From the NCBI GenBank assembly GCA_028716065.1, contig JAQUQN010000002.1, positions 6,485 to 70,484 of the forward strand: a stretch of 64,000 nucleotides of DNA, in the 5' to 3' direction. The notes below the pieces were generated by a model that was not told the origin of the DNA, ran no database searches, and saw only the letters and a list, made by a program, of their open reading frames with translations. Source of the DNA: Candidatus Omnitrophota bacterium (GTDB taxonomy: Bacteria > Omnitrophota > Gorgyraeia > 2-01-FULL-45-10). A program made the translations under genes and the position numbers. Below are positions 5,003 to 61,745 of this stretch, piece after piece (positions within the stretch are counted from its first letter, which is position 1; the number at the start of each line of letters is the position of its first letter).

Positions 5003-5383
5003 ATGAACATGTTTAAAATCGGAATGATCTTTTTATTAGTATTATCAATAGGCGCAGTAGCATACGCCGATAGCGCGAACGTCACGCCCGATACCAAAGG
5101 CACGGCAACGCAGACTGGATCTAGAGGGGCTGGTATAAAAGCGGAAAGAGGGGTAAAAAATATCCTCTTCGGATGGACAGAGATACCCAAGTCTATCATA
5201 CAGGTATCAAGAGATACGAAAAACCCGATCTGGGGTATTACCGCTGGAACTTTCAAAGGTGTAGGCAAGGCATTCCCCAGAACCGTTTCGGGTATAGCCG
5301 ATGTGGCAACGTTTCCTTTAGCAGCAGGGGATTACAACAAGCCGCTCGTAAAACCTGATGAGTTAAACACCCAGGTTCAGTAA
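5003..5383 (+). CDS. Exosortase-system-associated protein, TIGR04073-like
   Basis: Signal peptide plus the family pattern RGVKNILFGWTEIPKSI...GITAGTFKGVGKAFPRTVSGIADVATFP. Confidence 0.65.
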   Translation: MNMFKIGMIFLLVLSIGAVAYADSANVTPDTKGTATQTGSRGAGIKAERGVKNILFGWTEIPKSIIQVSRDTKNPIWGITAGTFKGVGKAFPRTVSGIADVATFPLAAGDYNKPLVKPDELNTQVQ

Positions 5384-6609: not shown

Positions 6610-7083
6610 ATGAATCATCTTATAATAAAGAAATTTCCGAATTCTTGCTTAAGAAAAAAAGCTGAAAAAGTTAAAAAGATAAGCTATGCAGAAAAAGAAC
6701 TACTTTCTGAGATGGCAAAGATCATGTATCTAAATGAGGGGGTGGGCCTTGCGGCGACGCAGGTGGGTATCAACTTCCAGTTGGTCGTTATAGATATTGG
6801 CCAGGGCCTAATCAAGCTCATAAATCCTGAAATAATCTCCAGAGAAGGCAAACAAACGTCTGAAGAGGGCTGTCTCAGCGTTCCTGGTACGGTGGTGAAG
6901 GTCAAGCGTGCCGAGAAGGTAAACTTAAACTTTCTTGATGAAAATGGCAACGCTTCCCGGTTACGCACCGAGGGGCTCCTGGCCCGCGTCGTACAGCACG
7001 AAATGGACCATCTTTCCGGAAAACTGATCATAGACTACCTGAATCCTATCAAAAAACTCCTAATAAAAAGAAAAAAATCTTGA
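6610..7083 (+). CDS. def: Peptide deformylase
   Basis: All three Def motifs are present: GVGLAATQVG, EGCLSVPG, QHEMDHL. Confidence 0.95.
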   Translation: MNHLIIKKFPNSCLRKKAEKVKKISYAEKELLSEMAKIMYLNEGVGLAATQVGINFQLVVIDIGQGLIKLINPEIISREGKQTSEEGCLSVPGTVVKVKRAEKVNLNFLDENGNASRLRTEGLLARVVQHEMDHLSGKLIIDYLNPIKKLLIKRKKS

Positions 7084-7108
7084 CATTTCGCTCATTATAT
7101 GGTATATT
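7080..7108 (+). promoter_or_regulatory. Sigma70-type promoter (TTGACA-N17-TATATT, TGn) for cspA with ~300-nt leader
   Basis: The -35 overlaps the def stop codon. The leader contains repeat copy A. Confidence 0.55.
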
Positions 7109-7201
7109 TAAGACATTATAAGCGAGTATTATAAGTGTCAAAAAATTTAATTAGTAGGGAATGCCATTCAAGGCTTTAAATAAGCCGCGGATGGCTTTTT
7201 T

Positions 7202-7351
7202 TATCCGCCTTCGCAATCAACGTGTAATAGGCTGGGTGCTTCGGCGGATGTCACACTGAAGCGGGTAGGCGGATACCCCCACCGCTAGATTTGCGAAGCA
7301 AATCTGGTGGGGGTAAAGAAAGGAACCACGGGCGTAAGCCCGTGGGGTTCC
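7202..7351 (+). repeat. Structured repeat element, copy A (in cspA leader)
   Basis: Has three parts. First, a TATCCGCC...GGCGGATA 8-bp clamp. Second, a 40-nt palindrome, ACCCCCACC-gct-AGATTTGC-GAA-GCAAATCT-GGTGGGGGT. Third, the hairpin GGAACCACGGGC-GTAA-GCCCGTGGGGTTCC. About 97% identical to copy B. Confidence 0.85.
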
Positions 7352-7419
7352 ATACATTCGCGGGCGTTGGCGCTGATACGCACTGCGAAGCTTCAGATGA
7401 AGGGGGGTGAACTAATTTA

Positions 7420-12566: not shown

Positions 12567-13280
12567 ATGCCTGAGAAGGAAAATAAAGGCGCTTCTTACG
12601 CCAGGCAACTGGAAGCGATCTCGAAGGTCAGCAAGACCATCACATCCGGACTATATCTGGAAGAGATCCTGAAACTCATCGTAACCGTGACGGCGGAGAT
12701 AATGAACTCAAAGATATGTTCACTGATGCTGTTAGATGAGAAGAGCAACATGCTCGTGCTCAAGGCAACGCAGTCGATGAGCGAGGTCTATAATAAGAAG
12801 TCCCCCTTGAAGGTAGGCGAGGGCATTGCGGGCAAGGTCGCGCAACAGAACAGCCCTATGGCAATATATGATATAGCCAAGGAGGCGGAATATAAAAATA
12901 AGGACATAGCAAAAAAAGAAGGATTAAAATCCCTTCTATCCGTCCCTCTGGCAGTAAAGGGCAGGGTAATAGGCGTACTCAATAATTACACTTCTCACCC
13001 TCACAAGTTCATTAAAAGCGAAGTCGAACTTCTGACCACGGTAGCAAACCAGGCTGCCATAGTGATAGAAAACGCGGCGCTGATGCTAAAAGCGAAGGTC
13101 ATGCAGGACGAACTTGAGACCAGAAAAACGGTCGAAAGGGCCAAGGGGGTACTGATGCGCACCCAGGGCCTTTCCGAAGAGGAGGCGTTCAGAAAGATAC
13201 AGAAACAGAGCATGGACATGAGAAAAACGATGCGCGAGATTGCCGAGGCCATCCTGCTTCTCGAGAAGATGAAATCCTGA
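12567..13280 (+). CDS. GAF-ANTAR RNA-binding antiterminator-type regulator (paralog 1)
   Basis: GAF-like N-terminal two-thirds (GEGIAGKV...VPLAVKGRVIGVLN). C-terminal ANTAR signature (ERAKGVLMRTQGLSEEEAFRKIQKQSMDMRKTMREIAEAI). Confidence 0.85.
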   Translation: MPEKENKGASYARQLEAISKVSKTITSGLYLEEILKLIVTVTAEIMNSKICSLMLLDEKSNMLVLKATQSMSEVYNKKSPLKVGEGIAGKVAQQNSPMAIYDIAKEAEYKNKDIAKKEGLKSLLSVPLAVKGRVIGVLNNYTSHPHKFIKSEVELLTTVANQAAIVIENAALMLKAKVMQDELETRKTVERAKGVLMRTQGLSEEEAFRKIQKQSMDMRKTMREIAEAILLLEKMKS

Positions 13281-15240: not shown

Positions 15241-15789
15241 GTGATAAGAATGAACTTAAATTTCGAAACGCTCGTCAATAGAATAACGCCCACGCTGAAA
15301 AGGATAACGCACCGGCTTAACGGCCATTTTACCTTTTTCGACGACGATGATCTATACCAGGAGGCCGTGACATATCTATGGCCGCTCTTCCAAAGAGGCA
15401 GACTTGGCGACAAGACGGACAGTTATATCCTACAGGGCTGTTATTTTCATCTTAAAAATTATATACGCACCTCGATGGACAAGGCCAAATTGATAAGCAT
15501 CTATAAGATAATAGATGCTGACGAAACCGAGCTTGGCGCGGTCCTGGCCGCGAAGGAGACGCCGGATCCGGAAAATCTGGAATACAAGATATTACTGAAA
15601 GAATCGGATAGGATGGGCCTGACGGAAAAGGAAAGGCGCGTTATATCATATTCATTGGAGGGACTTACTACAAGAGAGATAGGCGACCGCCTCGGTGTAT
15701 CTCACGTAATGGTGCTAAAGATAAAGGGAAAGATCAAACATAAGCTGCGTATTTTCAGAAATGAATACCGGAGAGGTTACCAAAATTAG
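15241..15789 (+). CDS. Sigma-70 family (ECF-like) RNA polymerase sigma factor
   Basis: Region-2-like DDLYQEAVTYLW. Region-4 HTH LTEKERRVISYSLEGLTTREIGDRLGVSHVMV. Confidence 0.7.
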   Translation: MIRMNLNFETLVNRITPTLKRITHRLNGHFTFFDDDDLYQEAVTYLWPLFQRGRLGDKTDSYILQGCYFHLKNYIRTSMDKAKLISIYKIIDADETELGAVLAAKETPDPENLEYKILLKESDRMGLTEKERRVISYSLEGLTTREIGDRLGVSHVMVLKIKGKIKHKLRIFRNEYRRGYQN

Positions 15790-15814
15790 GCATTTTTTAC
15801 TTGTAGAATCGTAG
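15774..15814 (+). promoter_or_regulatory. Conserved 41-nt box, copy 1 (upstream of porin-amtB-glnK)
   Basis: AGGTTACCAaAaTtAgGCATTTTTTACTTGTAgAaTcGTAG. 34/41 identical to 18917-18957. Contains a TAnAnT -10-like hexamer. Overlaps the sigma-factor stop codon. Confidence 0.6.
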
Positions 15815-18916: not shown

Positions 18917-18957
18917 AGGTTACCAGAGTAACGCATTTTTTACTTGTATAGTTGTAG
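18917..18957 (+). promoter_or_regulatory. Conserved 41-nt box, copy 2 (upstream of glnA)
   Basis: AGGTTACCAgAgTaAcGCATTTTTTACTTGTAtAgTtGTAG, starting 13 nt after the glnK stop. Confidence 0.6.
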
Positions 18958-28250: not shown

Positions 28251-29078
28251 ATGAAAATAAAACGGTTGGTTTTAATGCGCCAAATATCACAGACCGTTTT
28301 TTTCTTTTTATTTATCTACATCATCTGGTCGGCCACTTACCAATTAAAAGGGCCTCTGTCTCCCAGGTTAATTTTTGACGCCGATCCTCTCCTGACATTA
28401 TCCGCATCCATAGGCAGCCGCGTGATCATCCCCGGCATCTCATTGTCCCTCATCATCTTATTTATGACAGCTGTCCTCGGAAGATTCTTCTGCGGCTGGA
28501 TATGCCCCCTGGGTTCGACCATGGACCTGATCGCATCCTTTAAAAAAAGAAAGGCCGGTATTCCAGATTCGAAGAATAAAAAATTGAGAAGGCCGAAATT
28601 TTACATATTCGGCCTGATAGGCCTGTCGGCCGTGATGGGTACTCAGATAGCATGGTTGCTTGACCCGCTGGTGATCACAGAGCGTTTCCTGTCACTGACC
28701 ATCAGGTCCGCCTGCTCTTTACTGGGGAAGGGGGCTAATTTCTCGCCATACTCCATCATAACGCTTATATTCTTCGCGGTTATTTGCTCAATGGCGATAT
28801 TCTTAAGCCGTTTCTGGTGCCGGGCCATCTGCCCGTTAGGAGCGTTATATGCGGTCATGGCGCGTTTTTCCATATTAAGGCGTATTGTGGTGGAATGCAA
28901 GGATTGCGGCAACTGTAAAAGTTCGTGCAGGATGGGTGCTATAAAGGATGACGCCAGTTATGTAAAGTCAGAATGCATCCTTTGCATGGACTGTATCTAT
29001 GACTGCTCTTCCAACTCGACCAGCTTCGGCTGGGGCGATAAAAAGACCCGCAATTTTCTACTTGACAAAACACACTAA
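28251..29078 (+). CDS. Polytopic 4Fe-4S binding membrane protein (NapH/MauN-like)
   Basis: Repeated CxxxCP(L)G motifs (FCGWICPLG, FWCRAICPLG) plus two ferredoxin motifs (CKDCGNCKSSC, CILCMDCIYDC). Confidence 0.7.
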   Translation: MKIKRLVLMRQISQTVFFFLFIYIIWSATYQLKGPLSPRLIFDADPLLTLSASIGSRVIIPGISLSLIILFMTAVLGRFFCGWICPLGSTMDLIASFKKRKAGIPDSKNKKLRRPKFYIFGLIGLSAVMGTQIAWLLDPLVITERFLSLTIRSACSLLGKGANFSPYSIITLIFFAVICSMAIFLSRFWCRAICPLGALYAVMARFSILRRIVVECKDCGNCKSSCRMGAIKDDASYVKSECILCMDCIYDCSSNSTSFGWGDKKTRNFLLDKTH

Positions 29079-29090
29079 TGTTGCTATATT
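29062..29090 (+). promoter_or_regulatory. Sigma70-type promoter (TTGACA-N17-TATATT) for nfnAB-gdhA leader
   Basis: The -35 lies inside the 3' end of the upstream CDS. Followed by a leader terminator. Confidence 0.6.
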
Positions 29091-32800: not shown

Positions 32801-32823
32801 CGGAGGGCGGTAAAAAATAATAC

Positions 32824-32852
32824 TTGACAAAATAGACAAATCGTGGTATAAA
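32824..32852 (+). promoter_or_regulatory. Sigma70-type promoter (TTGACA-N17-TATAAA, TGn) for GAF-ANTAR-2 leader
   Basis: Lies 24 nt after the gdhA stop. Followed by three terminators. Confidence 0.6.
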
Positions 32853-32973: not shown

Positions 32974-33018
32974 ACGTCCGATCTGGCAGTATCATAATGC
33001 CGGAGAGGGCGTTTTTTT
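32974..33018 (+). terminator. GAF-ANTAR-2 leader terminator 2
   Basis: ACGTCCGATCTGGC / GCCGGAGAGGGCGT (12 pairs including two G.U, tandem G-A internal loop), then TTTTTTT. The 5' arm carries AAAGACGTCCG. Confidence 0.7.
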
Positions 33019-33025
33019 ATGAACG

Positions 33026-33070
33026 AAGGCGTTCTGTGCCGATAAACGGCGCATTGCGCCTTATTTTTTT
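33026..33070 (+). terminator. GAF-ANTAR-2 leader terminator 3
   Basis: Outer AAGGCG/CGCCTT plus inner TGTGCCG-ataaa-CGGCGCA, then TTATTTTTTT. The 5' arm carries ACGAAGGCGTT. Ends 10 nt before ATG 33081. Confidence 0.7.
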
Positions 33071-33080
33071 AGGTGACGCC

Positions 33081-33776
33081 ATGTCATACGAAGAACAGAT
33101 AAAGGCATTATCACGGATAAGCAGGGCCATAGCATCCGATCAATACCTGGAAGATATCCTACGCCTCATAGTCACGGTAACCGCGGAGATGATGGGTTCG
33201 AACATATGTTCGCTCATGCTGCTGGATGAGAACAGGAATGAGCTCATCATAAGGGCGACTCAAAGCGTAAGCGATGCATACAATAAAAAACCACCAGTAA
33301 AAATAGGCGAAGGCATAGCAGGCAAGGTATTCAAGGAGAAGGTGCCGGTAAAGGTCCTTGACGTGCGCAAAGATAAAAATTACATAAGCAGGAGCATAGC
33401 GAAGAAAGAAGGGCTGTGCTCGCTCCTGTGTGTACCCCTGATAGTCAAGAATAAGGCCATAGGGGTCCTAAATTGCTACACATCGAAACCCCGCGATTTC
33501 AGCGAGACGGAGACGAATATCCTGGCGACCATCGCCAATCAGGCGGCGGTAGCCATAGAGAATACGGAATTGATGGTCAGGAGCAAGGTCATACAGGAAG
33601 AGCTGGAGGTACGTAAGAAGATAGAACGCGCCAAGGGCATCATAATGAAGAGGGAGGGATTGAAAGAGGAAGAGGCCTATTTAAAACTCAGGAAATACAG
33701 TATGGATAGCCGTAAGACGATGCGCGAAATAGCGGATGCCATCATTCTTACGGAGGATTTAAGCAAGAAATTATAA
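33081..33776 (+). CDS. GAF-ANTAR RNA-binding antiterminator-type regulator (paralog 2)
   Basis: Roughly 55% identical by eye to 12567-13280. ANTAR signature ERAKGIIMKREGLKEEEAYLKLRKYSMDSRKTMREIADAI. Start at ATG 33081, downstream of the leader terminators. Confidence 0.85.
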   Translation: MSYEEQIKALSRISRAIASDQYLEDILRLIVTVTAEMMGSNICSLMLLDENRNELIIRATQSVSDAYNKKPPVKIGEGIAGKVFKEKVPVKVLDVRKDKNYISRSIAKKEGLCSLLCVPLIVKNKAIGVLNCYTSKPRDFSETETNILATIANQAAVAIENTELMVRSKVIQEELEVRKKIERAKGIIMKREGLKEEEAYLKLRKYSMDSRKTMREIADAIILTEDLSKKL

Positions 33777-37295: not shown

Positions 37296-38375
37296 ATGAA
37301 AGCGATACTGGCCCTGGAAGACGGAAAAATATTTAAAGGAGATTCCTTCGGAGCGGAAGGCGAAACCTTCGGGGAGGTCGTCTTCAACACGAGCATGGCG
37401 GGCTATCAGGAGATAGTGACCGACCCCTCCTACAAGGGGCAGATCGTGACGATGACCTATCCGTTGATAGGCAATTATGGTGTCAACGCAGAGGACGCGG
37501 AATCATGCAGGCCATTTGCCGAGGCTCTCGTCGTAAAAGAATATTCCAAGGTTGCCTCAAGCTGGCGCAGCCAGAAGTCCCTCGGCGATTATCTCAAGGA
37601 GAATAAAATATTGGGCATAGAAGATATCGATACCCGACAGCTGACCCTTCATATACGAGAGGCCGGGGCGATGAAAGCAGTTCTATCCACCGTCGATTTC
37701 GATGAAGCAAATCTCGTGAGGAAGGCCAAGAAATCTCCCGGACTTATAGGCATAGACCTGGTAAAAGATGTCTCTTCACAAAAGAGACGCGTATGGAACA
37801 CGGAAGGGCGCTACAAGGTAGTTGTTTTGGACTGCGGAGTGAAATTTAATATCTTAAGAGAACTTGCCAAGCGTGACTGCGCCGTTACGGTACTACCGGC
37901 AAGCGCATCCGCTGAAGAGATATTATCACTCAAGCCAAATGGCATATTGTTATCGAATGGTCCGGGGGACCCGGCCGCTGTTCCATATGTCGTCGAGACG
38001 GCCCGGGATCTACTGGGAAAGGTTCCTATATTCGGAATATGCCTGGGCCATCAGATGCTGGGGCAGGCCTTCGGCGGCAAGACATATAAACTCAAATTCG
38101 GCCACCATGGCGGCAACCATCCCGTAAAGGACCTAAAGACAGACAAGGTGGCAATAACGGTTCAAAATCACGGTTTTTGCGTAGACATAGATACCTTGAA
38201 CAAGAAAGAGATCGAGATAACACACATAAATCTGAACGACAAAACACTGGAAGGAATGAGGCATAAGAGACTGCCTGTATTCTCCGTGCAGTTTCATCCG
38301 GAATCTTCGCCGGGCCCCCATGACTCCGAATACCTTTTTTGCAATTTTGTGGAGATGATGAAACGCCATGCCTAA
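37296..38375 (+). CDS. carA: Carbamoyl-phosphate synthase small (glutaminase) subunit, catalytically intact copy
   Basis: Canonical triad context GICLGHQ and [15 protein letters not shown]. Starts 1 nt after the pyrG stop. Confidence 0.9.
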
Positions 38376-40035
38376 GCGAAAGGACATAAAAAAGATACTG
38401 ATCATAGGCTCGGGGCCTATCGTGATAGGCCAGGCATGCGAGTTTGACTATTCCGGATCTCAGGCGTGCAAGGTCCTGAGGCAGGAAGGTTACAAAGTGA
38501 TCCTTGTAAATTCAAATCCCGCCACTATAATGACCGATCCGGAGATGGCGGATAAAACCTACATAGAACCCATAGATGTAGATACCGTCGGAAGGATAAT
38601 CGCAAAGGAGAGACCCGACGCGTTGCTTCCCACGCTAGGGGGACAGACCGCATTGAACACTGCTGTAGGACTTGCCGAGGCGGGTATATTAAAAAAATAT
38701 AAGGTGGAGACGATAGGCGCCAATATAAAAGCGATCAAGAAGGCTGAGGACAGGCGGCTCTTTAAGGAGGCGATGCAGAAGATAGGGCTTGATCTGCCGG
38801 AGAGCGGCAAGGCTTATAACATGAAAGAGGCTTTTGAAACTGCGGAGAAGATAGGGTTTCCCGTCATCATAAGACCGAGCTTTACCCTGGGAGGAAAAGG
38901 CGGGAGCGTCGCATATAATAAAGAGGATTTTAAAGAGCTTGCGAAAATAGGCATTGAATCCAGCATGATAAGCGAGATATTGATAGAGGAATCTGTTATG
39001 GGATGGAAGGAGTTCGAGCTCGAAGTCATGAGGGACGTCAAGGACAATGTAGTAATAATATGTTCTATCGAAAATCTGGATCCTATGGGGATCCACACAG
39101 GGGACAGCATAACGGTCGCGCCCGCCCAGACACTGACCGATAGAGAATACCAGAAGATGAGAGACGCCTCGATAGCATGTATAAGAGAGATAGGGGTTGA
39201 AACCGGCGGATCCAATATACAGTTTGCCGTGAACCCCAAAACGGGCAGGATGGTAGTTATAGAGATGAACCCCAGGGTATCGAGAAGTTCTGCCCTGGCC
39301 TCCAAGGCGACCGGATTTCCGATAGCCAAGATAGCTGCCAAACTGGCGGTCGGTTATACGCTGGATGAAATACCGAACGATATCACGAAGGAGACGCCTG
39401 CATGTTTTGAGCCGGCCATCGACTATTGCGTCGTCAAGATACCGAGGTTTACATTCGAAAAGTTCGCCACGGCAGACCCAACATTGACAATATCGATGAA
39501 ATCCGTGGGAGAGGCGATGGCAATTGGCAGGACTTTCAAGGAAGCGCTACAGAAAGGCCTGCGTTCACTAGAGATTAAAAAATCAGGCCTCGACACCATC
39601 ATCTTTAAGGGGCACGTCGACGATATAAACGCCGATGAGGAGACGAGGGATGAAATCTGTCAAAAGGTTATAATACCAAACTCGGAAAGGATATTTTATA
39701 TCGGCGACGCCCTGAGGGCCGGTATCGATGCCGAAAAGATATGCGAGCTTTCCGGAATAGACCCTTGGTTCATACATAATATCAAAGAAATTATAATCGC
39801 GGAAAAAGAGATCATCTCGGGAAAGGATAAGATGACCGCTGAACTGTTGGCCAAGGCAAAACGGCTGGGTTTCAGTGATATTCAGATCGCCTGCCTGACA
39901 GGCACCAAGGAGAAAGCTATACGCGCCTTAAGAAAAAAATTCGGGATAAATCCTTCCTTCAAGCTCGTCGATACCTGCGCCGCTGAGTTCAGGGCCCACA
40001 CCCCATACTATTACTCAACGTACGATCATCAATAA
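38368..40035 (+). CDS. carB: Half-size CarB: N-terminal (carboxyphosphate) ATP-grasp plus oligomerisation domain only, 555 aa
   Basis: Collinear with residues 1-555 of the full-length carB at 46593. ATP-grasp motifs are intact. Ends ...[18 protein letters not shown], exactly at the half boundary. 8-nt overlap with carA. Confidence 0.85.
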
Positions 40036-42142: not shown

Positions 42143-42160
42143 AAAAGATCTCTACATGAA

Positions 42161-42234
42161 ACCCCCACCAGATTTGCTTCGCAAATCTAGCTGTGGGGGG
42201 TATCCGCCTAACGATTTTTATGCGAAGGCGGATA
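42161..42234 (-). repeat. Structured repeat element, copy C (short, inverted; between convergent genes)
   Basis: The reverse complement carries the TATCCGCC...GGCGGATA clamp and the same palindrome. It lacks the internal ~50 nt and the GTAA hairpin. Confidence 0.8.
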
Positions 42235-42265
42235 AAAAAGACCCCGCGATTTTCGCGCGGGGTCA
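42232..42265 (-). terminator. Intrinsic terminator for the minus-strand two-component/CBM operon
   Basis: GACCCCGCG-attttcg-CGCGGGGTC. On the minus strand it is followed by TTTTTTAT. Confidence 0.7.
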
Positions 42266-45466: not shown

Positions 45467-46606
45467 ATGAAAGCAACGTTAGTTCTGGAAAATGGCAGGT
45501 CCTTTGAGGGTGTTTCAATAGGCGCGCCGGCCGAGAGGATAGGCGAGGTCATTTTAAATACGGCGGTAGTGGGCTATCAGGAGATGATGACCGACCCGGC
45601 AAATGCCGGTAAGTTATTGGCCCTGACTTATCCTTTGATAGGTAATTACGGGGTGGCGAACAAATTTTACGAGTCTAGAAAATGCTGGGTTAACGGATTG
45701 ATCATGAAAGAATGCAGCAGGATATATTCGAACTGGCAGGCAGAGGGTTCCTTCCAGGACTTTCTGAATCATGAAGGGGTCGTCGCCTTGAGCGAAGTCG
45801 ACACGAGAACTCTGGCCGTTGAATTACGTAATCACGGAGAGATGATGGGTATCATAACGAGCGAGCCGCTCGATGGGCAGAAGGCGATAAAAAAACTGCG
45901 AGAGCATAAAAAGAAGGGCAAAAATAATTTTATAAGCAATATCTCCGTGAAGGCCATAACCGAAGTAGAGACCGGCTCCAGGGGGCCAAGGGTCGCGGTG
46001 CTTGACCTTGGCATGCTGAAGAGCTTCACCGCCCAATTGAAGAGCCTTAAATGCGGCGTGGCCCTGTTGCCCTACAACATAACGCCCAAAGAGATCCTGG
46101 CCATAAAACCGGACGGCCTCGTAATATCCAGCGGGCCGGAGGACGATGCTGCCATACCCGAGATCATCAAGACCGTGAACGGCGTGCTTGGAAAAATTCC
46201 TATATTGGGCATATCTTTAGGACATGAGCTCATCGCGCTTGCGTTGGGCGGCAAAGTGAAAAAGATGAAGCTGGGGCACCGAGGAGTAAACTATCCGGTA
46301 AAGCCGGCGGATTCGTTTAAGGGCGAGATAACGACGCAAAATCATAGCTACATCGTTGACGAGGACTCAATAAGAAGAAAGAAGGCCGTAGAAATAACCC
46401 TGAGAAATATAAACGACGGCTCCATAGAGGAGATGGAAAGCAAGAGCTTGAAGTTCATCTCGACACAATACTATCCGGTCAGCCCCGGTTTCGGGGAGGT
46501 CAACAATGTCTTCTTGCGATTTTTGAAATTGCTAAACCCTTCCGGGAGAGCGGGGATAAAAACGAAGAAAAATAAACAACTTGAGGTGAGCTATGCCAAA
46601 ACGTAA
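45467..46606 (+). CDS. carA: CarA-like subunit with the glutaminase catalytic triad lost (pseudo-glutaminase)
   Basis: Full-length CarA fold, but GICLGHQ is GISLGHE (Ser250, codon TCT 46214-46216) and QFHPE is QYYPV (Tyr336, Val338). 14-nt overlap with full-length carB. Confidence 0.85.
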
Positions 46607-49600
46607 GGATATACATAAAATACTGATGATAGGCTCCGGCCCAATAGTCATCGGCCAGGCATGCGAATTTGACTATTCCGGCTCCCAGGCATGCAAGGCG
46701 TTAAAAGAAGAGGGGTATCGCACCATACTCGTGAATTCGAACCCCGCCACCATCATGACCGATCCCAACATGGCCGACGTCACATATATAGAGCCCCTCA
46801 CGGTGGAGGCGGTTACCGAGATAATAAAAAAGGAAAGGCCTGACGCCATCCTTCCCACTCTTGGCGGCCAGACCGGACTGAACCTGGCATTCTTCCTGAT
46901 GAAGGAAGGGATATTGAAAAAATACGGAGTCGAATCGATAGGCGCAAATGTCGATGCCATCTCGCGGGCCGAAGACAGGGAGCTGTTCAAAAAGGCCATG
47001 CTCGAGATAGGCATAGATGTCCCAAAAAGCGGTATCGCCACCACTATAGAAGAGGGCATAAAGATAGGGCTCGGTATAGGGTTTCCGCTCATCTTAAGGC
47101 CGGCCTACACGCTCGGGGGCACGGGCGGATCCATAGCGTATAATAAAGAAGAGCTGGAGCTCTTCCTGGCCAAGGGCATAGAATTGAGCCCCGTGGGCCA
47201 GATCCTGGTGGAACAATCTGTCCTGGGCTGGAAAGAGATAGAATTTGAAGTTATGCGGGATTGCGTCGATAACGTCATCATGATAACATCGATGGAGAAT
47301 GTCGACCCCATGGGCGTCCATACAGGCGACAGCATCGTCGTCGCTCCATCGCAGACCCTGACCAAAGAGGAATATGCTCAGTTCGTAAACCTGTCCAAGA
47401 AGATAATAAGGAAGATAGGCATAACCGGAGGGGGCGCCAATATCCAGTTTGCGCAAAACCCCGCCAATGGCCATATAGTTATAATCGAGGTGAACCCGCG
47501 CCTCTCCAGAAGCTCTGCCCTGGCATCGAAGGCCACGGGATTTCCTATCGCGCGCGTCGCCACCAAGCTGGCTGTTGGGCTGACGCTTCCGGAGGTCCTC
47601 AATCAGATAACGGGCGGGACGAAGGCCTTTTTCGAACCGACGGTTGATTATTGCGTCTTCAAGATATGCAGGTTCACGTTTGAGAAATTTCCGCAGACTA
47701 ACAGGACGCTGAATACCTCCATGAAGGCGGTGGGAGAGGCGATGTCCATAGGGAGAAACTTCAAAGAGGCCCTCCAGAAAGGCATAAGGTCGACCGAGAT
47801 CCGAAGGTTCGGGCTGGGTTGTGACGGCCGGGACAAGATAACGGATGAAAACATCGAATCTCCCGGAGCGGATACCATACAGACCATAAAAGAGAAGATA
47901 CGCCTTCCCAACGACGACAGGCTATTCTATATAAGATACGCCCTTAAGCTGGGAATGACGGCCGAGGAGATATATGAATTGTCCAGGATCGACATGTGGT
48001 TTATCGACAACTTAAAGCAGATCGTGGAATTAGAAGAAGGCCTCAAGAACTACCGCAAGACCAGCCAGAAGGGTTCTATAAAGATCCCTCCCGCGGTACT
48101 TCTGGAGGCGAAGAAATACGGATTTTCAGATGTACAGATCGCGTTCCTTACAAAATCCAGCGAAAAAGAGGTGAGAGAATTGAGAAAGAGGCATGATATA
48201 AAACCTACTTATAAATTGGTAGATACATGCGCGGGGGAGATCAAGGCCAAACAGCCCTATTATTACTCTACCTATGAGACCGAAGACGAAAGCCGCCCGA
48301 CGAAGAACAAGAAGGTCCTGATCCTGGGTGGAGGCCCCAACAGGATCGGCCAAGGCATAGAGTTCGATTACTGCTGCTGCCACGCATCATACGCCCTGAA
48401 AGAAGAGGGGATAGAGAGCATCATGGTCAATTGTAACCCTGAAACAGTCTCCACGGATTATGATACATCCGATAAGTTATATTTTGAGCCGCTTACCGTG
48501 GAAGATGTGATGAATATAGTGGACAACGAAAAACCGATAGGGGCAATAGTACAGTTCGGAGGCCAGACGCCCCTGAATATTTCGGGCGAATTACACAAGA
48601 TGGGCCTCAATATATTAGGCACCAGCCCGGACTCAATCGATATCGCTGAGGACAGGAAACGCTTCCAGCAGATGCTGAAGAAACTTAAACTGGTCCAACC
48701 CGATAACGGAACGGCGACCTCTTTCGAGGAGGCAAAGAAGATCGCGCATACGATAGGGTATCCCGTGGTAGTAAGGCCTTCTTACGTGCTGGGTGGCAGG
48801 GCGATGGAGATAGTTTATGATGAAAAGGCCCTGTGCGATTATATGGAAAGGGCCACGGAGGCTTCGCCCGAAAAACCCATATTGATCGATAAATTCCTCG
48901 AAGACGCCATAGAGGTTGATGTCGACGCCATAGCCGACGGTAAAAGATGCGTGATAGGAGGATTCCTTGAGCATATAGAGGAGGCGGGGATCCATTCGGG
49001 CGACAGCGCGATGGTGCTCCCTCCGCATACCCTGGGCAAGGATATCATAGACACCATAAAGAAAAATACCTATGCGATGGCAAAGGAGCTGAAGGTCAAG
49101 GGCCTCATGAACGTGCAATACGCCGTAAAAAACAACATAGTCTATGTGCTGGAAGTAAACCCGAGGGCCAGCAGGACCGTTCCGTTCGTCTCTAAGGCGA
49201 TAGGCATACCCCTGGCAAAACTCGCCACGAAGATAATGCTGGGCAAGACATTGGATGAACTCGGTTTTACAAAAGAGAAAAATATAAATTTTGTCGTGGT
49301 CAAAGAATCTGTATTCCCCTTCATAAGGTTCCCTGGCGCGGACGCCATATTGGGCCCTGAAATGAAATCTACCGGTGAGGTAATGGGCATGGACTCTACA
49401 TTCGGCATGGCTTACGCTAAAAGCCAGTTAGCGGCCGGCCAGAAACTGCCTAAAAAAGGCAATGTCTTTATAAGCGTAAAAAACCAGGACAAGAGAAACA
49501 TGGTATTCGTGGCAAAGAAGCTTTCCGATCTTGGCTTTAAGATCCTGGCCACTATAGGGACCGCTGAGGCTCTGAGGAGCAATGACATAGAGGTCCGGGT

Positions 49601-49862
49601 ATTGCCAAAGCTTCATGAAGGCCGGCCCAATATCATAGATTTTATAAAGGATAATAAAGTCCATCTAATCATAAATACCCCTGCGGGAAAGGCCACGAAA
49701 GAGGACGAGTCTAAAATAAGGGCCCATGCGATCCTTTATAATGTTCCGCTCATAACCACGGTTTCGGGCGCGCAGGCATCCGTAAACGGAATAGAAAATC
49801 TGATTAAAAAACCTGAGATGTCCGTAAGGTCTCTGCAGGATTACCACAAGAAGATAAAATAG
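46593..49862 (+). CDS. carB: Carbamoyl-phosphate synthase large subunit (full length)
   Basis: 1089 aa with both ATP-grasp halves and a C-terminal MGS-like allosteric domain. Confidence 0.95.
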
Positions 49863-57311: not shown

Positions 57312-58454
57312 ATGAAAATAGTATCTGTGGCTAATCAAAAAGGCGGATGCGGAAAGACTACCACGGCCATAAACCTGGCGGGCGCCCTGGCCAAACTCGG
57401 GAAGAAGACGCTTCTCATCGACCTGGATCCGCAGGCGCACGCGTCATATGGGCTTGGAATATCGAGCCAGGCGGTAAAAAAATCGATATATAATGTCTTG
57501 ACCGATATCCCTGAGAAGAGATGCGCACTGAATGGTTGCATAGTGAACGTTTTACAGAACCTCGATCTCATTCCATCCAACATACTACTGAGCACCCTGG
57601 AACAGGAGCTGAAAGACAAGGAAGACGCCGTATCAAGGCTGAACCAGGTCCTCTCCGGAGGTAAATTGAATTATGATTACGTGATAATGGACTGCCCTCC
57701 GAGCCTGGGCTTTCTGACATTCAACGCCCTGAGGGCATCGGAGCTCATAATAGTTCCCATCGACATGAGTGCCTTTTCCCTGATGGGGGTGGGGATGCTT
57801 CTCGGAATGCTGGAACTTATAAAGGTAAAGATATTCCACGCTCCGCGCGTGAACGCGGTCGCCACTCTTTTCGATAAAAGGACCAAATATTCCCAGACGA
57901 TGCTGGAAGAGATACGGGCGTTCTTCAAGGGACAGACCCTCGATGCCGTCATAAGAAACAGCGTCGCCCTAAAAAAGGCCGTATATAAAGGGATACCTGT
58001 CACGGAGTTCGAAGCCGGATCGAACGGCGCGATGGACCACATAGCGCTGGCGCGAGAGATACTCCAGAAAGAAGGCGACCTTGAATTTGAAAAGGCCATG
58101 GAAGATACTAAGCCCGGTGCGCAGGAACCGGAAATAACTCCCGCGCAGGAAGGACCGCTACCGGCCAGGACAGAAAGTCCGATCCTGCCGGCCAGTTTCA
58201 TAGAATCTATCTTCTCTATACAGGCGCCCACCGCCAAGGATGTATATATCGTGGGTGATTTTAACAACTGGAAGATCAATGACGAGAGCAAACTATCGAA
58301 GATCAATGAGGGCAGGTGGGAGAAGCGGCTCAATCTCACGAGCGGAAAATACAGATATAAATTCGTCGTGGACGGGGAGTGGCAGCTTGACTCGAGAAAT
58401 AACGAACGCGAGATGAACCCGTTCGGCACATTTGATTCTATAATAAAACTATAG
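57312..58454 (+). CDS. ParA/MinD-family ATPase fused to a C-terminal CBM48 (AMPK-beta-type glycogen-binding) domain
   Basis: Deviant Walker A NQKGGCGKTT and DCPPSLG. A Pro/Glu-rich linker precedes the C-terminal segment VYIVGDFNNWK...GKYRYKFVVDGEWQLDSRN...FGTFDSII. Confidence 0.85.
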   Translation: MKIVSVANQKGGCGKTTTAINLAGALAKLGKKTLLIDLDPQAHASYGLGISSQAVKKSIYNVLTDIPEKRCALNGCIVNVLQNLDLIPSNILLSTLEQELKDKEDAVSRLNQVLSGGKLNYDYVIMDCPPSLGFLTFNALRASELIIVPIDMSAFSLMGVGMLLGMLELIKVKIFHAPRVNAVATLFDKRTKYSQTMLEEIRAFFKGQTLDAVIRNSVALKKAVYKGIPVTEFEAGSNGAMDHIALAREILQKEGDLEFEKAMEDTKPGAQEPEITPAQEGPLPARTESPILPASFIESIFSIQAPTAKDVYIVGDFNNWKINDESKLSKINEGRWEKRLNLTSGKYRYKFVVDGEWQLDSRNNEREMNPFGTFDSIIKL

Positions 58455-59573: not shown

Positions 59574-59602
59574 TTGACAAAGACGCGCCCTGCCTGTAAA
59601 AT
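59574..59602 (+). promoter_or_regulatory. Sigma70-type promoter (TTGACA-N17-TAAAAT) for mnmG leader
   Basis: Exact -35. The ~345-nt leader contains the 3-way-junction structure and repeat copy B. Confidence 0.55.
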
Positions 59603-59629: not shown

Positions 59630-59702
59630 GGATGGCAACAGCTCTCTTGTAGGTATCTAGTACCTCGAGGCCCGATAACGGGTCATTCTGCTGTTGTCAT
59701 CC
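59630..59702 (+). other. 73-nt predicted three-way-junction RNA structure in mnmG leader
   Basis: 13-bp closing stem GGATGGCAACAGC / GCTGTTGTCATCC (one G.U). It encloses hairpins AGGTA-tctag-TACCT and GGCCCG-ataa-CGGGTC. No U-tail. Downstream of promoter 59574-59602. Confidence 0.45.
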
Positions 59703-59756
59703 AAAACTAGTATACACTATTACATTATAATTGACAAGGCAAAGTGGATAGATTTC

Positions 59757-59954
59757 TATCCGCCTTCGCAATCAACGTGTAATAGGCTAGGTGCTTCGGC
59801 GGATGTCACACTGAAGCGGGTAGGCGGATACCCCCACCGTTAGATTTGCGAAGCAAATCTGGTGGGGGTTGGCAGATACCCCCACTGTTAGATTTGCGAA
59901 GCAAATCTGGTGGGGGTAAATAAAGGAACCACGGGCGTAAGCCCGTGGGGTTCT
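59757..59954 (+). repeat. Structured repeat element, copy B (in mnmG leader) with tandem duplication of the 48-nt palindromic unit
   Basis: Same order of modules as copy A with 4 substitutions. The GATACCCCCAC(C/T)GTTAGATTTGCGAAGCAAATCTGGTGGGGGT unit occurs twice back to back. Coordinates +/-1-2 nt. Confidence 0.85.
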
Positions 59955-61745
59955 ATGAATAGCGAATACGACATAATAATAATAGGCTCAGGCCATGCCG
60001 GCTGTGAAGCCAGCCTTGCTTCATCGAGGCTGGGCTGCAAGACCCTGCTCATTACTATGAGCATAGATAAGATCGGCTTCATGTCCTGTAACCCGGCCGT
60101 GGGAGGCCTGGCAAAGGGCCAGCTGGTCAAGGAGATAGACGCGCTCGGCGGCCAGATGGCCAAGGCAACCGATGTGTCGTGCATCCAACTGAGATTGTTG
60201 AACACGCGCAAAGGCCCTGCGGTAAGATCCACGAGGGCGCAGGTAGACAGGCAGATATATAAAACATACATGACCTCCATAGTAGAAACGCAGCCAAATC
60301 TCTCTGTGAAGGAAGGGCTTGTCGAGAAGATCCTTGTCGAAAACAACGTCGCCAAAGGCGTAGTGACCTCTCTGAACGAGGAATATTTCGCAAAGGCCGT
60401 GATAATAACACCCGGTACATTTTTGAACGGCCTCATACACATAGGTCTGGAACATCATGCCGGCGGCAGAATAGGGGAGAGGCACTCCGAGAGATTGGCC
60501 GCAGATCTAAGGAAGCTCGGATTTAAAATGGGGCGTCTCAAGACAGGCACATGCGCGCGGATCGACGGCCGGACGATAAATTTTGAAAAGCTCACTGCAC
60601 AATATGGCGATAAAGAAATGCCTCCATTCTCATTCCAGACGGTAAGAAGGCAGGAAAAGGAACTACCCTGCTATATAACCTACACCAATGAAAGAACCCA
60701 CGATATCATCAGGGCCAATCTAAACAGGTCCCCATTATTCACTGGTATCATAAAAGGGACCGGCGTGCGGTATTGTCCTTCGATAGAAGATAAGATATAC
60801 CGCTTCCCGCAGCGTGACAGGCATCATATATTCCTTGAGCCCGAGGGCCTTAATACCATAGAGTATTACCCGAATGGAATATCTACCAGCCTGCCCGTAG
60901 ATGTGCAGGTGAAGATGATAAACTCCATAGAGGGCCTCGAAAACGCCAGGATAACACGGCCGGGATACGGGATAGAATATGATTTCGTCGATCCTACACA
61001 ACTCTATCCCACGCTGGAGACGAAATCCATTAAAGGCCTATACATGGCCGGCCAGATCAACGGAACCACCGGCTACGAAGAGGCGGCCGCACTTGGCCTC
61101 ATGGCAGGCATAAACGCCGCATTATCGATAAAGGGTAAAAGGCCTCTCGTACTCGACCGTTCTCAAGCCTACATAGGAGTTCTCATAGATGACCTGGTTA
61201 CAAAGGGCACTGCAGAACCATACAGGATGTTCACTTCAAGGGTGGAATACCGTCTTTTACTGCGCGAGGACAACGCTGATTGGCGGCTTACGCCGATAGG
61301 CTTCGAGATAGGCCTGATAGGGGACCAGAGGCACAGGGCCGTTTTAATGAAAAGAGAGAATATCGAGAGAGAGTTGCGCAAGTTAAGAGAGCGGGGCTTT
61401 GAGAAGATCCTCAGGCGGCCGGGCGTAACATATAAAACATTAGGTTACACAGAAGCCGATCCCGCGCTTACAAGGGAAGAGATAGCTGAATTGGAGATAG
61501 AGATAAAATATGAGGGCTTTGTAAAAAGGCAGCTTAATGACATAGGGCGTTTTAAAAAGATTGAAAAGATACGGATCCCGGAAATCATGGACTACGCAAA
61601 AGTGCACGGCCTATCCTCTGAAGTAAGGGAGAAACTCTCCGGCATCAAGCCTATCAATCTGGGACAGGCATCGCGGATCTCCGGAGTCACACCTGCGGCC
61701 ATATCCATATTGATGGTATATCTGGAGAAGTACAGAAGAAGTTAG
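59955..61745 (+). CDS. mnmG: tRNA uridine 5-carboxymethylaminomethyl modification enzyme
   Basis: Start taken at MNSEYDIIIIGSGHAGCEA (FAD fold). The listed 59910 GTG start lies inside the upstream repeat element. Confidence 0.95.
   Translation: MNSEYDIIIIGSGHAGCEASLASSRLGCKTLLITMSIDKIGFMSCNPAVGGLAKGQLVKEIDALGGQMAKATDVSCIQLRLLNTRKGPAVRSTRAQVDRQIYKTYMTSIVETQPNLSVKEGLVEKILVENNVAKGVVTSLNEEYFAKAVIITPGTFLNGLIHIGLEHHAGGRIGERHSERLAADLRKLGFKMGRLKTGTCARIDGRTINFEKLTAQYGDKEMPPFSFQTVRRQEKELPCYITYTNERTHDIIRANLNRSPLFTGIIKGTGVRYCPSIEDKIYRFPQRDRHHIFLEPEGLNTIEYYPNGISTSLPVDVQVKMINSIEGLENARITRPGYGIEYDFVDPTQLYPTLETKSIKGLYMAGQINGTTGYEEAAALGLMAGINAALSIKGKRPLVLDRSQAYIGVLIDDLVTKGTAEPYRMFTSRVEYRLLLREDNADWRLTPIGFEIGLIGDQRHRAVLMKRENIERELRKLRERGFEKILRRPGVTYKTLGYTEADPALTREEIAELEIEIKYEGFVKRQLNDIGRFKKIEKIRIPEIMDYAKVHGLSSEVREKLSGIKPINLGQASRISGVTPAAISILMVYLEKYRRS

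Follow-up and report, generated by a model that had tools for sequence, protein, structure and literature searches.

IS200/IS605 elements normally have a fixed target tetranucleotide, and the miniature elements derived from them (PATE-type) have asymmetric ends and subterminal hairpins, lack both terminal inverted repeats (TIRs) and target-site duplications (TSDs), and insert without duplication. Repetitive extragenic palindromes (REPs) that go with a RAYT are palindromes of 20-40 bp tagged GTAG or CGTC, often imperfect and bulged; their copy number is high, inverted dimers (REPINs, BIMEs) are frequent, and the cognate RAYT gene typically has REPs at its flanks. In the Rickettsia palindromic elements (RPEs) and in cyanobacterial repeats, palindromes are tolerated inside functional RNA genes. 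Pneumococcal and other streptococcal BOX elements follow the plan boxA-boxB(n)-boxC, in which distinct end modules flank a variable number of tandem, self-folding internal modules of ~45-48 nt; the canonical form is <200 nt long and highly base-paired by prediction, and BOX is co-transcribed with neighboring genes (PMC3049150). REPs are also found in mosaic arrangements, and Planctomycetes are among the bacteria reported to have them; in their GTAG superfamily the tag is found in >90% of members, directly at the stem or 2 nt from it, and inverted dimers are frequent (PMC3733652). The substrate of E. coli TnpA-REP must be a bulged palindrome with a conserved motif ahead of it (PMC8266576). Here we analyze 64 kb of a contig from an Omnitrophota bacterium (hereafter the window; positions count from its start), which contains three intergenic copies, named A, B, and C, of a structured repeat. 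The kind of repeat is known, namely the small non-autonomous mosaic intergenic repeat (REP/BOX/MITE-like), but the family has not been described before. On balance, we favor the view that A, B, and C are copies of one mobile DNA element of ~150-200 nt, non-coding and non-autonomous, that is specific to Omnitrophota and moved in trans. Next to nothing has been described of the mobile and repetitive DNA of the Omnitrophota, an uncultured phylum, and a search of the literature that combined the phylum with repetitive extragenic palindromes returned nothing.

Anatomy of the Element

The element is composed of three modules, which stand in the same order in copies A and B. M1, an irregular hairpin of 73 nt, has TATCCGCC/GGCGGATA as its closing clamp. 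M2 is a bulged palindrome of the general form A-CCCCCACC-GYT-AGATTTGC-GAA-GCAAATCT-GGTGGGGG-T, with a GCGAAGC tip and a 3-nt bulge on the 5' side. After an A-rich 7-nt linker follows M3, a hairpin that reads GGAACCACGGGC-GTAA-GCCCGTG-GG-GTTC and is followed by YAT. The copies and their modules are located as follows.

7202-7353, plus strand: copy A, M1-M2-M3 (full element of 152 nt), situated between def and cspA and starting right behind the T-run of the cspA leader hairpin
7202-7274, plus strand: M1 of copy A, clamp TATCCGCC…GGCGGATA around the conserved hairpin ATCCGCC-TTCGC…GCTTC-GGCGGAT
7275-7314, plus strand: M2 of copy A, 40-nt bulged palindrome A-CCCCCACC-GCT-AGATTTGC-GAA-GCAAATCT-GGTGGGGG-T
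7322-7350, plus strand: M3 of copy A, GTAA (GNRA)-capped hairpin with a 2-nt 3' bulge, then the terminal CAT (7351-7353)
59757-59956, plus strand: copy B, full element (M1-M2-M2-M3, 200 nt), its final two bases being the AT of the mnmG ATG (59955-59957)
59830-59869, plus strand: first M2 unit of copy B
59878-59917, plus strand: second M2 unit of copy B (48-nt period), with one C>T in the outer stem that gives a G·T pair
59925-59953, plus strand: M3 of copy B, with 1 nt between the hairpin and the mnmG ATG
42156-42234, minus strand: copy C, internally deleted, with a shortened M1, M2, and the 3' terminus GGGGGTTTCAT

Copies A and B lie 52 kb apart and, with one 48-nt unit of B removed, differ at 4 of 152 positions (7234, 7285, 7318, and 7351), that is, they are 97.4% identical. 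Two of the four substitutions affect unpaired positions and two affect paired ones, a split that is uninformative as a discriminator between hypotheses. In copy B, the palindrome module M2 is doubled in tandem, at 48 nt from start to start. Copy C has a complete M2 and has kept both termini of the element, while most of M3 is missing: its end, …GGTGGGGGTTTCAT, matches the full-element 3' terminus, …GTGGGGTTCCAT, if the similar G-runs of M2 and M3 are taken as the endpoints of a deletion. Because the 3' terminus of the family (…GGGGGTTTCAT) is retained, this copy was extended to 42156-42234. Much of this anatomy had been anticipated in an earlier note on this DNA, made from the letters alone: all three of the copies that it listed are present, A and B have the module order and the four substitutions that it gave them (to which the 48-nt duplication of M2 in B is now added), and C is indeed shortened and inverted, being an internally deleted copy on the minus strand.

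The repetition and the folding both exceed what chance would give. The 19-nt core of the palindrome occurs four times in the window (0.03 expected) and the 29-nt GNRA hairpin twice (0 expected). Predicted folding energies are -77.5 kcal/mol for copy A (z = -6.9 versus shuffled sequence) and -104.3 kcal/mol for copy B (z = -7.4). An nhmmer profile, built from A, B, and a full copy found in a metagenome contig (L002, described below), detected no further copies in the window and no extra or decayed copies in the relatives beyond those listed here.

The ends of the element are constant in A, B, L002, and the deleted copy C (5'-TATCCGCC … GGGGTTYCAT-3'), and they do not form terminal inverted repeats (5' TATCCGCCTTCG versus 3' …GTGGGGTTCCAT). 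No target-site duplication was found at A, B, C, or the L002 site as compared with its empty counterpart in L132. The 5' flanks are pyrimidine-rich and have no fixed 4-mer in common: TTTTTT precedes A and C, ATTTC precedes B, and CTCCTC precedes L002, which places the element just 3' of a pyrimidine run at all four readable junctions. Two of these four runs are the T-runs of terminator-like hairpins.

These ends bear on two conventional explanations, both of which we consider very improbable. The first is a classical MITE (miniature transposable element with inverted repeats), a deletion derivative of an insertion sequence with a DDE transposase. A length of ~150-200 nt, strong secondary structure, intergenic position, and an internally deleted derivative such as copy C are all in keeping with a MITE, but the lack of TIRs and of TSDs is not. 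The second is a non-mobile segmental duplication or gene conversion, which cannot account for identical termini that recur at unrelated sites and in more than one organism.

Filled and Empty Sites

Relatives of the window, with 69-79% protein identity at the closest, were used for synteny. The gene order panD-def-cspA-yqeY is conserved among them, and the def-cspA spacer, which holds copy A, is 336 nt long in the window versus 17 nt in one relative (L122) and 199 nt in another (L124). In L124 the promoter and the leader hairpin with its T-run are present, and the 152-nt element is absent. Similarly, the spacers between the LOG-like gene and mnmG in L126 and L129 have a block of ~75 nt in common with the window and lack the 200-nt copy B. 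A third comparison, the clearest of them, comes from another organism: the JGI metagenome contig L002, found via a scan for a 22-mer of the element, has a full M1-M2-M3 copy, and the orthologous site in a relative at 88% protein identity (L132) aligns on both flanks with ~172 nt missing. The more distant relatives L133-L135 are also without this copy.

The element is thus a unit of insertion or deletion whose modules recombine and whose stems are maintained. Its filled and empty sites demonstrate mobility. Of the two explanations that the earlier note offered for the ~97% identity of A and B, recent mobility or strong selection, the former was borne out, in that both are lineage-specific insertions in conserved spacers and L002 has an empty counterpart in L132. 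In addition, copies are found in both orientations with respect to the flanking genes (antisense in L002 and in L120, a locus with M2 alone; between convergent genes for copy C), which argues for a DNA-level element over a sense-specific cis-regulator.

The element also breaks short-read assemblies. Logan contigs of the same organism end ~30 nt inside the copies; these ends were considered as a sign of extra genomic copies, an idea that was rejected, since A and B alone explain breaks at ~30 nt inside shared sequence.

Modules in Other Genomes

The 22-mer TTGCGAAGCAAATCTGGTGGGG has no match in GTDB representative genomes and none in IMG/VR, and is present in two contigs of the JGI metagenome collection. 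An exact search with the 19-mer AGATTTGCGAAGCAAATCT gave >118 loci in GTDB representative genomes (L004-L121) versus ~4 expected by chance. Most of them belong to unrelated repeat families, and the M2 architecture is found among these loci only in Omnitrophota and Planctomycetia.

The modules occur in several combinations: M1-M2-M3 (A and L002), M1-M2-M2-M3 (B), M2-M3 (L003), and M2-M2 (L055). In L003, M2 and M3 stand directly after an ABC-2 permease gene and supply its stop codon, and in L120 a single antisense M2 precedes a murI-like start by 25 nt. Two M2 units stand in tandem in L055 (period of 68 nt), and TTTTT follows the second of them. Hairpins similar to M1 occur alone in L122 and in L126-L128; that of L126 is located elsewhere in the same LOG-mnmG spacer.

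M2 is 38-40 nt long and comprises an outer stem, a bulge of 3-4 nt, an inner stem of 8 bp, and a GAA loop. Its stem pairs were tabulated by script in 14 copies; MAFFT had placed the bulge, which varies in length, inconsistently. The outer stem measures 7-11 bp in these copies, with changes on both sides at the three innermost pairs (CG/TA, CG/AT/GC, and AT/GC/CG). The bulge is on the 5' side in 14 of 14 and reads G-Y-T(-T), except in C (AGCT) and L078 (AGAT). The identity of the inner 19 nt is not to be counted as conservation, because most of the loci came from the exact 19-mer search.

Elsewhere, the 19-mer usually tips longer hairpins of multi-copy repeats. Its carriers include a large Streptococcus suis family, probably the BOX-type repeats of that species, as well as Oscillospiraceae, Lachnospiraceae, a metagenome-assembled genome of Elusimicrobia (three loci), Lysobacter/Pseudoxanthomonas, and a tandem array in Paenibacillus arenilitoris.

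A Possible Role at the RNA Level

In one other genome, that of Omnitrophica WOR_2 bacterium GWA2_63_20, M2-type hairpins form the inserted tips of P3 and P12 of the RNase P RNA and of a stem of a cobalamin riboswitch, as identified with cmscan. All three are in the sense orientation, and the one in P12 is a longer variant of the hairpin.

L101, 549-1011: RNase P RNA of GWA2_63_20, with hairpins at 963-981 and ~780-830
L121, 1497-1644: cobalamin riboswitch of GWA2_63_20, with a hairpin at 1543-1561

These cases suggest a different explanation, in which the element, or at least M2, is a functional RNA module, i.e., a protein-binding or stabilizing stem-loop present in many Omnitrophota transcripts, and the copies at cspA and mnmG are selected cis-regulatory or stability elements. 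We regard this as unlikely. The tips in GWA2_63_20 have the same inner hairpin, a 5' bulge of the form G-K-T-T, and an outer stem with a C-rich and a G-rich arm. The outer stem of M2 covaries around an inner 19 nt that is identical across genomes of 41-63% GC, although this identity is partly an artefact of the exact 19-mer search. Two further changes, the C>T in the second M2 of copy B and a C>T at the base of M3, are both compatible with G·U pairing. By the reading of their flanks, most loci are in the sense orientation (A, B, L003, L078, and L035); the copies in L002 and L120, however, are antisense. Between A/B and L002 there is little conservation in the interior of M1 and in the stem of M3, and no candidate partner protein was identified. 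No relative that was examined has the composite in these leaders, and neither cspA nor mnmG therefore needs it.

On the basis of three cases in one genome, a palindrome that invades tolerant helices cannot be told apart from a role at the RNA level as the origin of the tips in GWA2_63_20. It is quite unlikely, though conceivable, that M2 (C-rich 5' arm, G-Y-T-T bulge, AGAUUUGC-GAA-GCAAAUCU tip, and G-rich 3' arm) is more than selfish DNA and serves as an RNA-level module across Omnitrophota and perhaps the wider PVC group. If so, M2 would be a recognition site for an RNA-binding or RNA-processing protein, or a "hairpin-capping" element that colonizes the apical loops of preexisting helices. 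This would explain why it caps P3 and P12 of RNase P RNA and a riboswitch stem and also occurs in mRNA leaders and at 3' ends elsewhere. If one aspect of this family could lead to something new, it is that a different Omnitrophota genome carries the same hairpin in its RNase P RNA and in a riboswitch.

Comparison With Known Repeat Families

In architecture, BOX is the closest analogue of the element. Both can be written as distinct end modules around a variable internal one (in the element M2, present once in A and twice in B), and the lengths, the predicted base-pairing, and the position in transcripts of neighboring genes, a probable one for the element, are comparable (PMC3049150). On the other hand, BOX has been reported with TIRs and TSDs, both of which the element lacks, and the host phylum differs. 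No sequence relation was seen beyond the 19-mer hairpin tip in the S. suis repeats.

With REP, BIME, and REPIN sequences the element has in common a short, bulged, imperfect palindrome with a 5' motif, covarying stems that tolerate G·T pairs, an organization in mosaics, and an extragenic position near gene ends (PMC3733652, PMC8266576). It nevertheless seems improbable that M2 is the REP of a bona fide REP/BIME system moved by a cognate RAYT (TnpA-REP). As a bulged palindrome with a semi-conserved 5' motif (GGCGGATA), M2 is the kind of substrate described for TnpA-REP of E. coli (PMC8266576), and the copies are intergenic and near gene ends. However, GTAG itself is confined to A and B; C and L003 have TTAG in its place, L002 has GCAG, L055 has CTGC, and L120 has no tag. 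The tag also stands 7 nt from the foot of the stem, and not immediately 5' of the palindrome as the earlier note had it. The paired M2 units of B and L055 are head-to-tail tandems instead of inverted dimers, and the unit that inserts is the whole composite of 150-200 nt, not the palindrome alone. No RAYT was found in the Pfam scan of the window, nor in a tblastn search of 192 kb that is a weak negative. Furthermore, the copy number appears low for a REP or REPIN, with four M2 units at three loci in 64 kb. The tag, its spacing, the tandem units, and the composite insertion led us not to file the element as a REP. The REP/RAYT reading suggested in the earlier note is supported only in part: the bulged palindrome and the semi-conserved 5' motif agree with it; the GTAG is not conserved, the paired units lie in tandem, and no RAYT came up in the searches made.

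The miniature IS200/IS605 derivatives resemble the element in their asymmetric ends, in the absence of TIRs and TSDs, and in hairpins close to both ends; in the element, M1 occupies the 5' terminus and M3 stops 3 nt short of the 3' terminus. As differences, no conserved target tetra- or pentanucleotide was seen at the insertion sites, only pyrimidine runs, and an internal palindrome that can be amplified in tandem is atypical of that group. The likeness to RPEs lies in the M2-type hairpins within RNase P RNA and a riboswitch, which belong to GWA2_63_20 and not to the window; in contrast to RPEs, no in-frame insertions into coding sequence were seen.

As suggested in the earlier note, the window and the element regions were compared with Rfam (Rfam 15). 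No family reached its gathering threshold in the window, and permissive E-values brought up only meaningless matches to miRNA and CRISPR-repeat models (E-values of at least 0.0015). Copy A had no blastn match in plasmid and phage collections.

A remnant of a class C group II intron was also considered. Such introns begin with 5' GUGYG, have the catalytic triad in domain V and a bulged A in domain VI, and insert after terminators. The features of the element that recall them are limited to the position after a T-run (A and C) and the bulged GNRA hairpin. The candidate was rejected: the 5' end is TATCC, M3 is without the AGC/CGC triad, there is no domain VI, and no Rfam intron model matched. An integron attC site, a retron, a tRNA, a tmRNA, and an ANTAR target were likewise rejected on anatomy.

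Proposed Mobilization

The build of the element is A-B(n)-C, with M1 as the 5' clamp, M2 in one or more tandem units, and M3 as the 3' GNRA hairpin, and the whole composite inserts as one unit with fixed asymmetric termini and without TIR or TSD. The element is gene-less and would therefore have to be moved in trans. In the proposed scheme, the mover would be a hairpin-recognizing HUH/Y1 enzyme (IS200/IS605 TnpA or RAYT-like) encoded elsewhere in the genome and acting by single-strand "peel-and-paste". This mode is the best fit because of the asymmetric ends, the subterminal hairpins, the bulged palindrome, and the absence of TIRs and TSDs; it is meant as a possible way of working, not as membership in that family. 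Changes in the number of M2 units would most likely arise via slippage or unequal recombination, and internal deletions between short direct repeats could give derivatives such as copy C. Where they have landed downstream of promoters, A and B would be co-transcribed into leaders.

Several observations weigh against a mobile element moved in this way. No transposase is encoded among the ~50 open reading frames of the window that were scanned against Pfam, as the earlier note had already stated; each appears to be a housekeeping gene, with nitrogen assimilation, the synthesis of purines and pyrimidines, and PilZ proteins among the functions. The search for RAYT or IS200/IS605-type tnpA genes that it had proposed gave no match, either in the window or across 192 kb from Omnitrophota; the latter result, obtained by tblastn with IS200 TnpA and E. 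coli RAYT queries, is a weak negative. The family is known from three loci in 64 kb and, through the 22-mer, from two JGI contigs and no GTDB representative, and no fixed target tetranucleotide is evident. For sites A and B, the relatives with empty sites are distant (69-79% protein identity), and deletion in these relatives instead of insertion in the window is formally possible. Finally, M2-type hairpins lie in sense orientation inside the RNase P RNA and the cobalamin riboswitch of another Omnitrophota genome, and an informal count puts ~9 of 11 loci in that orientation; this bias and the hairpins in structured RNAs leave room for a role at the RNA level. As a filled/empty-site example of a gene-less, TIR-less composite repeat in Omnitrophota, the element could provide a handle for finding the mobilizing enzyme.

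Probable Consequences for the cspA and mnmG Leaders

The copies lie in three different settings, which involve the following host features.

7080-7108, plus strand: promoter-like site TTGACA-17-TATATT (11/12), overlapping the end of def and conserved in L124
7163-7201, plus strand: conserved cspA leader hairpin and T7 run, host sequence outside the element and insertion point of copy A
42240-42264, no strand assigned: host hairpin that resembles a bidirectional terminator and, on the minus strand, adjoins copy C at its 5' end

Copy A is located between def and cspA, downstream of the 11/12 promoter-like site and directly after the leader hairpin with its T7 run; the site at 7080-7108 would transcribe it as part of the cspA leader. 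Copy B is located between the LOG-like gene and mnmG, downstream of another 11/12 promoter-like site (59574-59602) and of a conserved RNA-like block. Copy C has the stop of a DUF1846 gene (42142) on one side and the bidirectional terminator on the other; read on its own strand, it starts directly after the T-run of that terminator.

The element was also examined as an intrinsic terminator, a candidate that was rejected, as the hairpins of A and B have no genuine T-run in the sense orientation. The terminator scan found no such run after any element hairpin of A or B in that orientation. Its only plus-strand match within the element, at 59860-59887 in B, corresponds to an alternative M2-M2 pairing with a mixed tail (TTAGATTTGC), and otherwise only the reverse complement of M3 was flagged as terminator-like (tail TTCCTTTCTT). 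In view of the promoters upstream and the absence of a T-run after the sense-oriented hairpins, A and B should be read through, and they should now form most of the 5' untranslated regions of cspA and mnmG. The earlier note had placed A and B in the sense orientation inside long 5' leaders. The orientation and the position downstream of promoter-like sites hold, but the length is not ancestral, since these leaders are long because of the insertions. An element that remodels the untranslated regions of cspA and mnmG in this way could be mistaken for a riboswitch-like leader.

M3 of copy B ends 1 nt (and not 2-3 nt, as first noted) before an ATG that matches the start of the 596-aa MnmG homologues, and at the corresponding position relatives have A/U-rich, unstructured sequence. 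An alternative in-frame start, the GTG at 59910, lies within the element. It is plausible that M3 of copy B affects the initiation of mnmG translation or the stability of the mRNA. Any such effect is probably a by-product of the insertion and not an evolved function.

Three observations concern the host sequence of these spacers. The hairpin and T7 run at 7163-7201, conserved together with the promoter in L124, are a possible attenuator or terminator in a cold-shock leader. In the spacer between the LOG-like gene and mnmG, a block of ~75 nt (59638-59710) folds into a three-way junction, with a 13-bp closing stem (GGATGGCAACAGC/GCTGTTGTCATCC) and two hairpins. It is almost invariant in L126 and L129 (75-79% protein identity) while its flanks diverge, and it has no Rfam match and no covariation among the three sequences; we consider it a candidate for a conserved small RNA or leader element. 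In L129, the mnmG ATG is preceded at a distance of ~25 nt by the sequence TTTATCCGCCTCG (~5213-5226). In the window this is the position at which copy B starts (TTCTATCCGCCTTCG), but L129 has no more of the element. The sequence could be the remnant of an old insertion or a chance 9-mer match.

Other Observations in the Window

Two further pairs of non-coding motifs are repeated in the window. The motif AGGTTACCA…GCATTTTTTACTTGTAG occurs at 15774-15814 and 18917-18957, upstream of a porin gene and of glnA, and a promoter-like motif, TACTTGACAAAA…TATA, occurs at 29059-29088 and 32821-32850. Both pairs belong to a nitrogen-metabolism cluster that also contains two GAF-ANTAR regulators (12567-13280 and 32997-33776), and they may be shared regulatory sites.

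Two paralogous sets of carA/carB, which encode carbamoyl-phosphate synthase, are found at 37296-40035 and 45467-49862 (repeats D3-D5). The gene at 57312-58454 encodes a ParA/MinD-type ATPase fused to an AMPK1_CBM/CBM48 glycogen-binding domain, a fusion that is conserved in the relatives.

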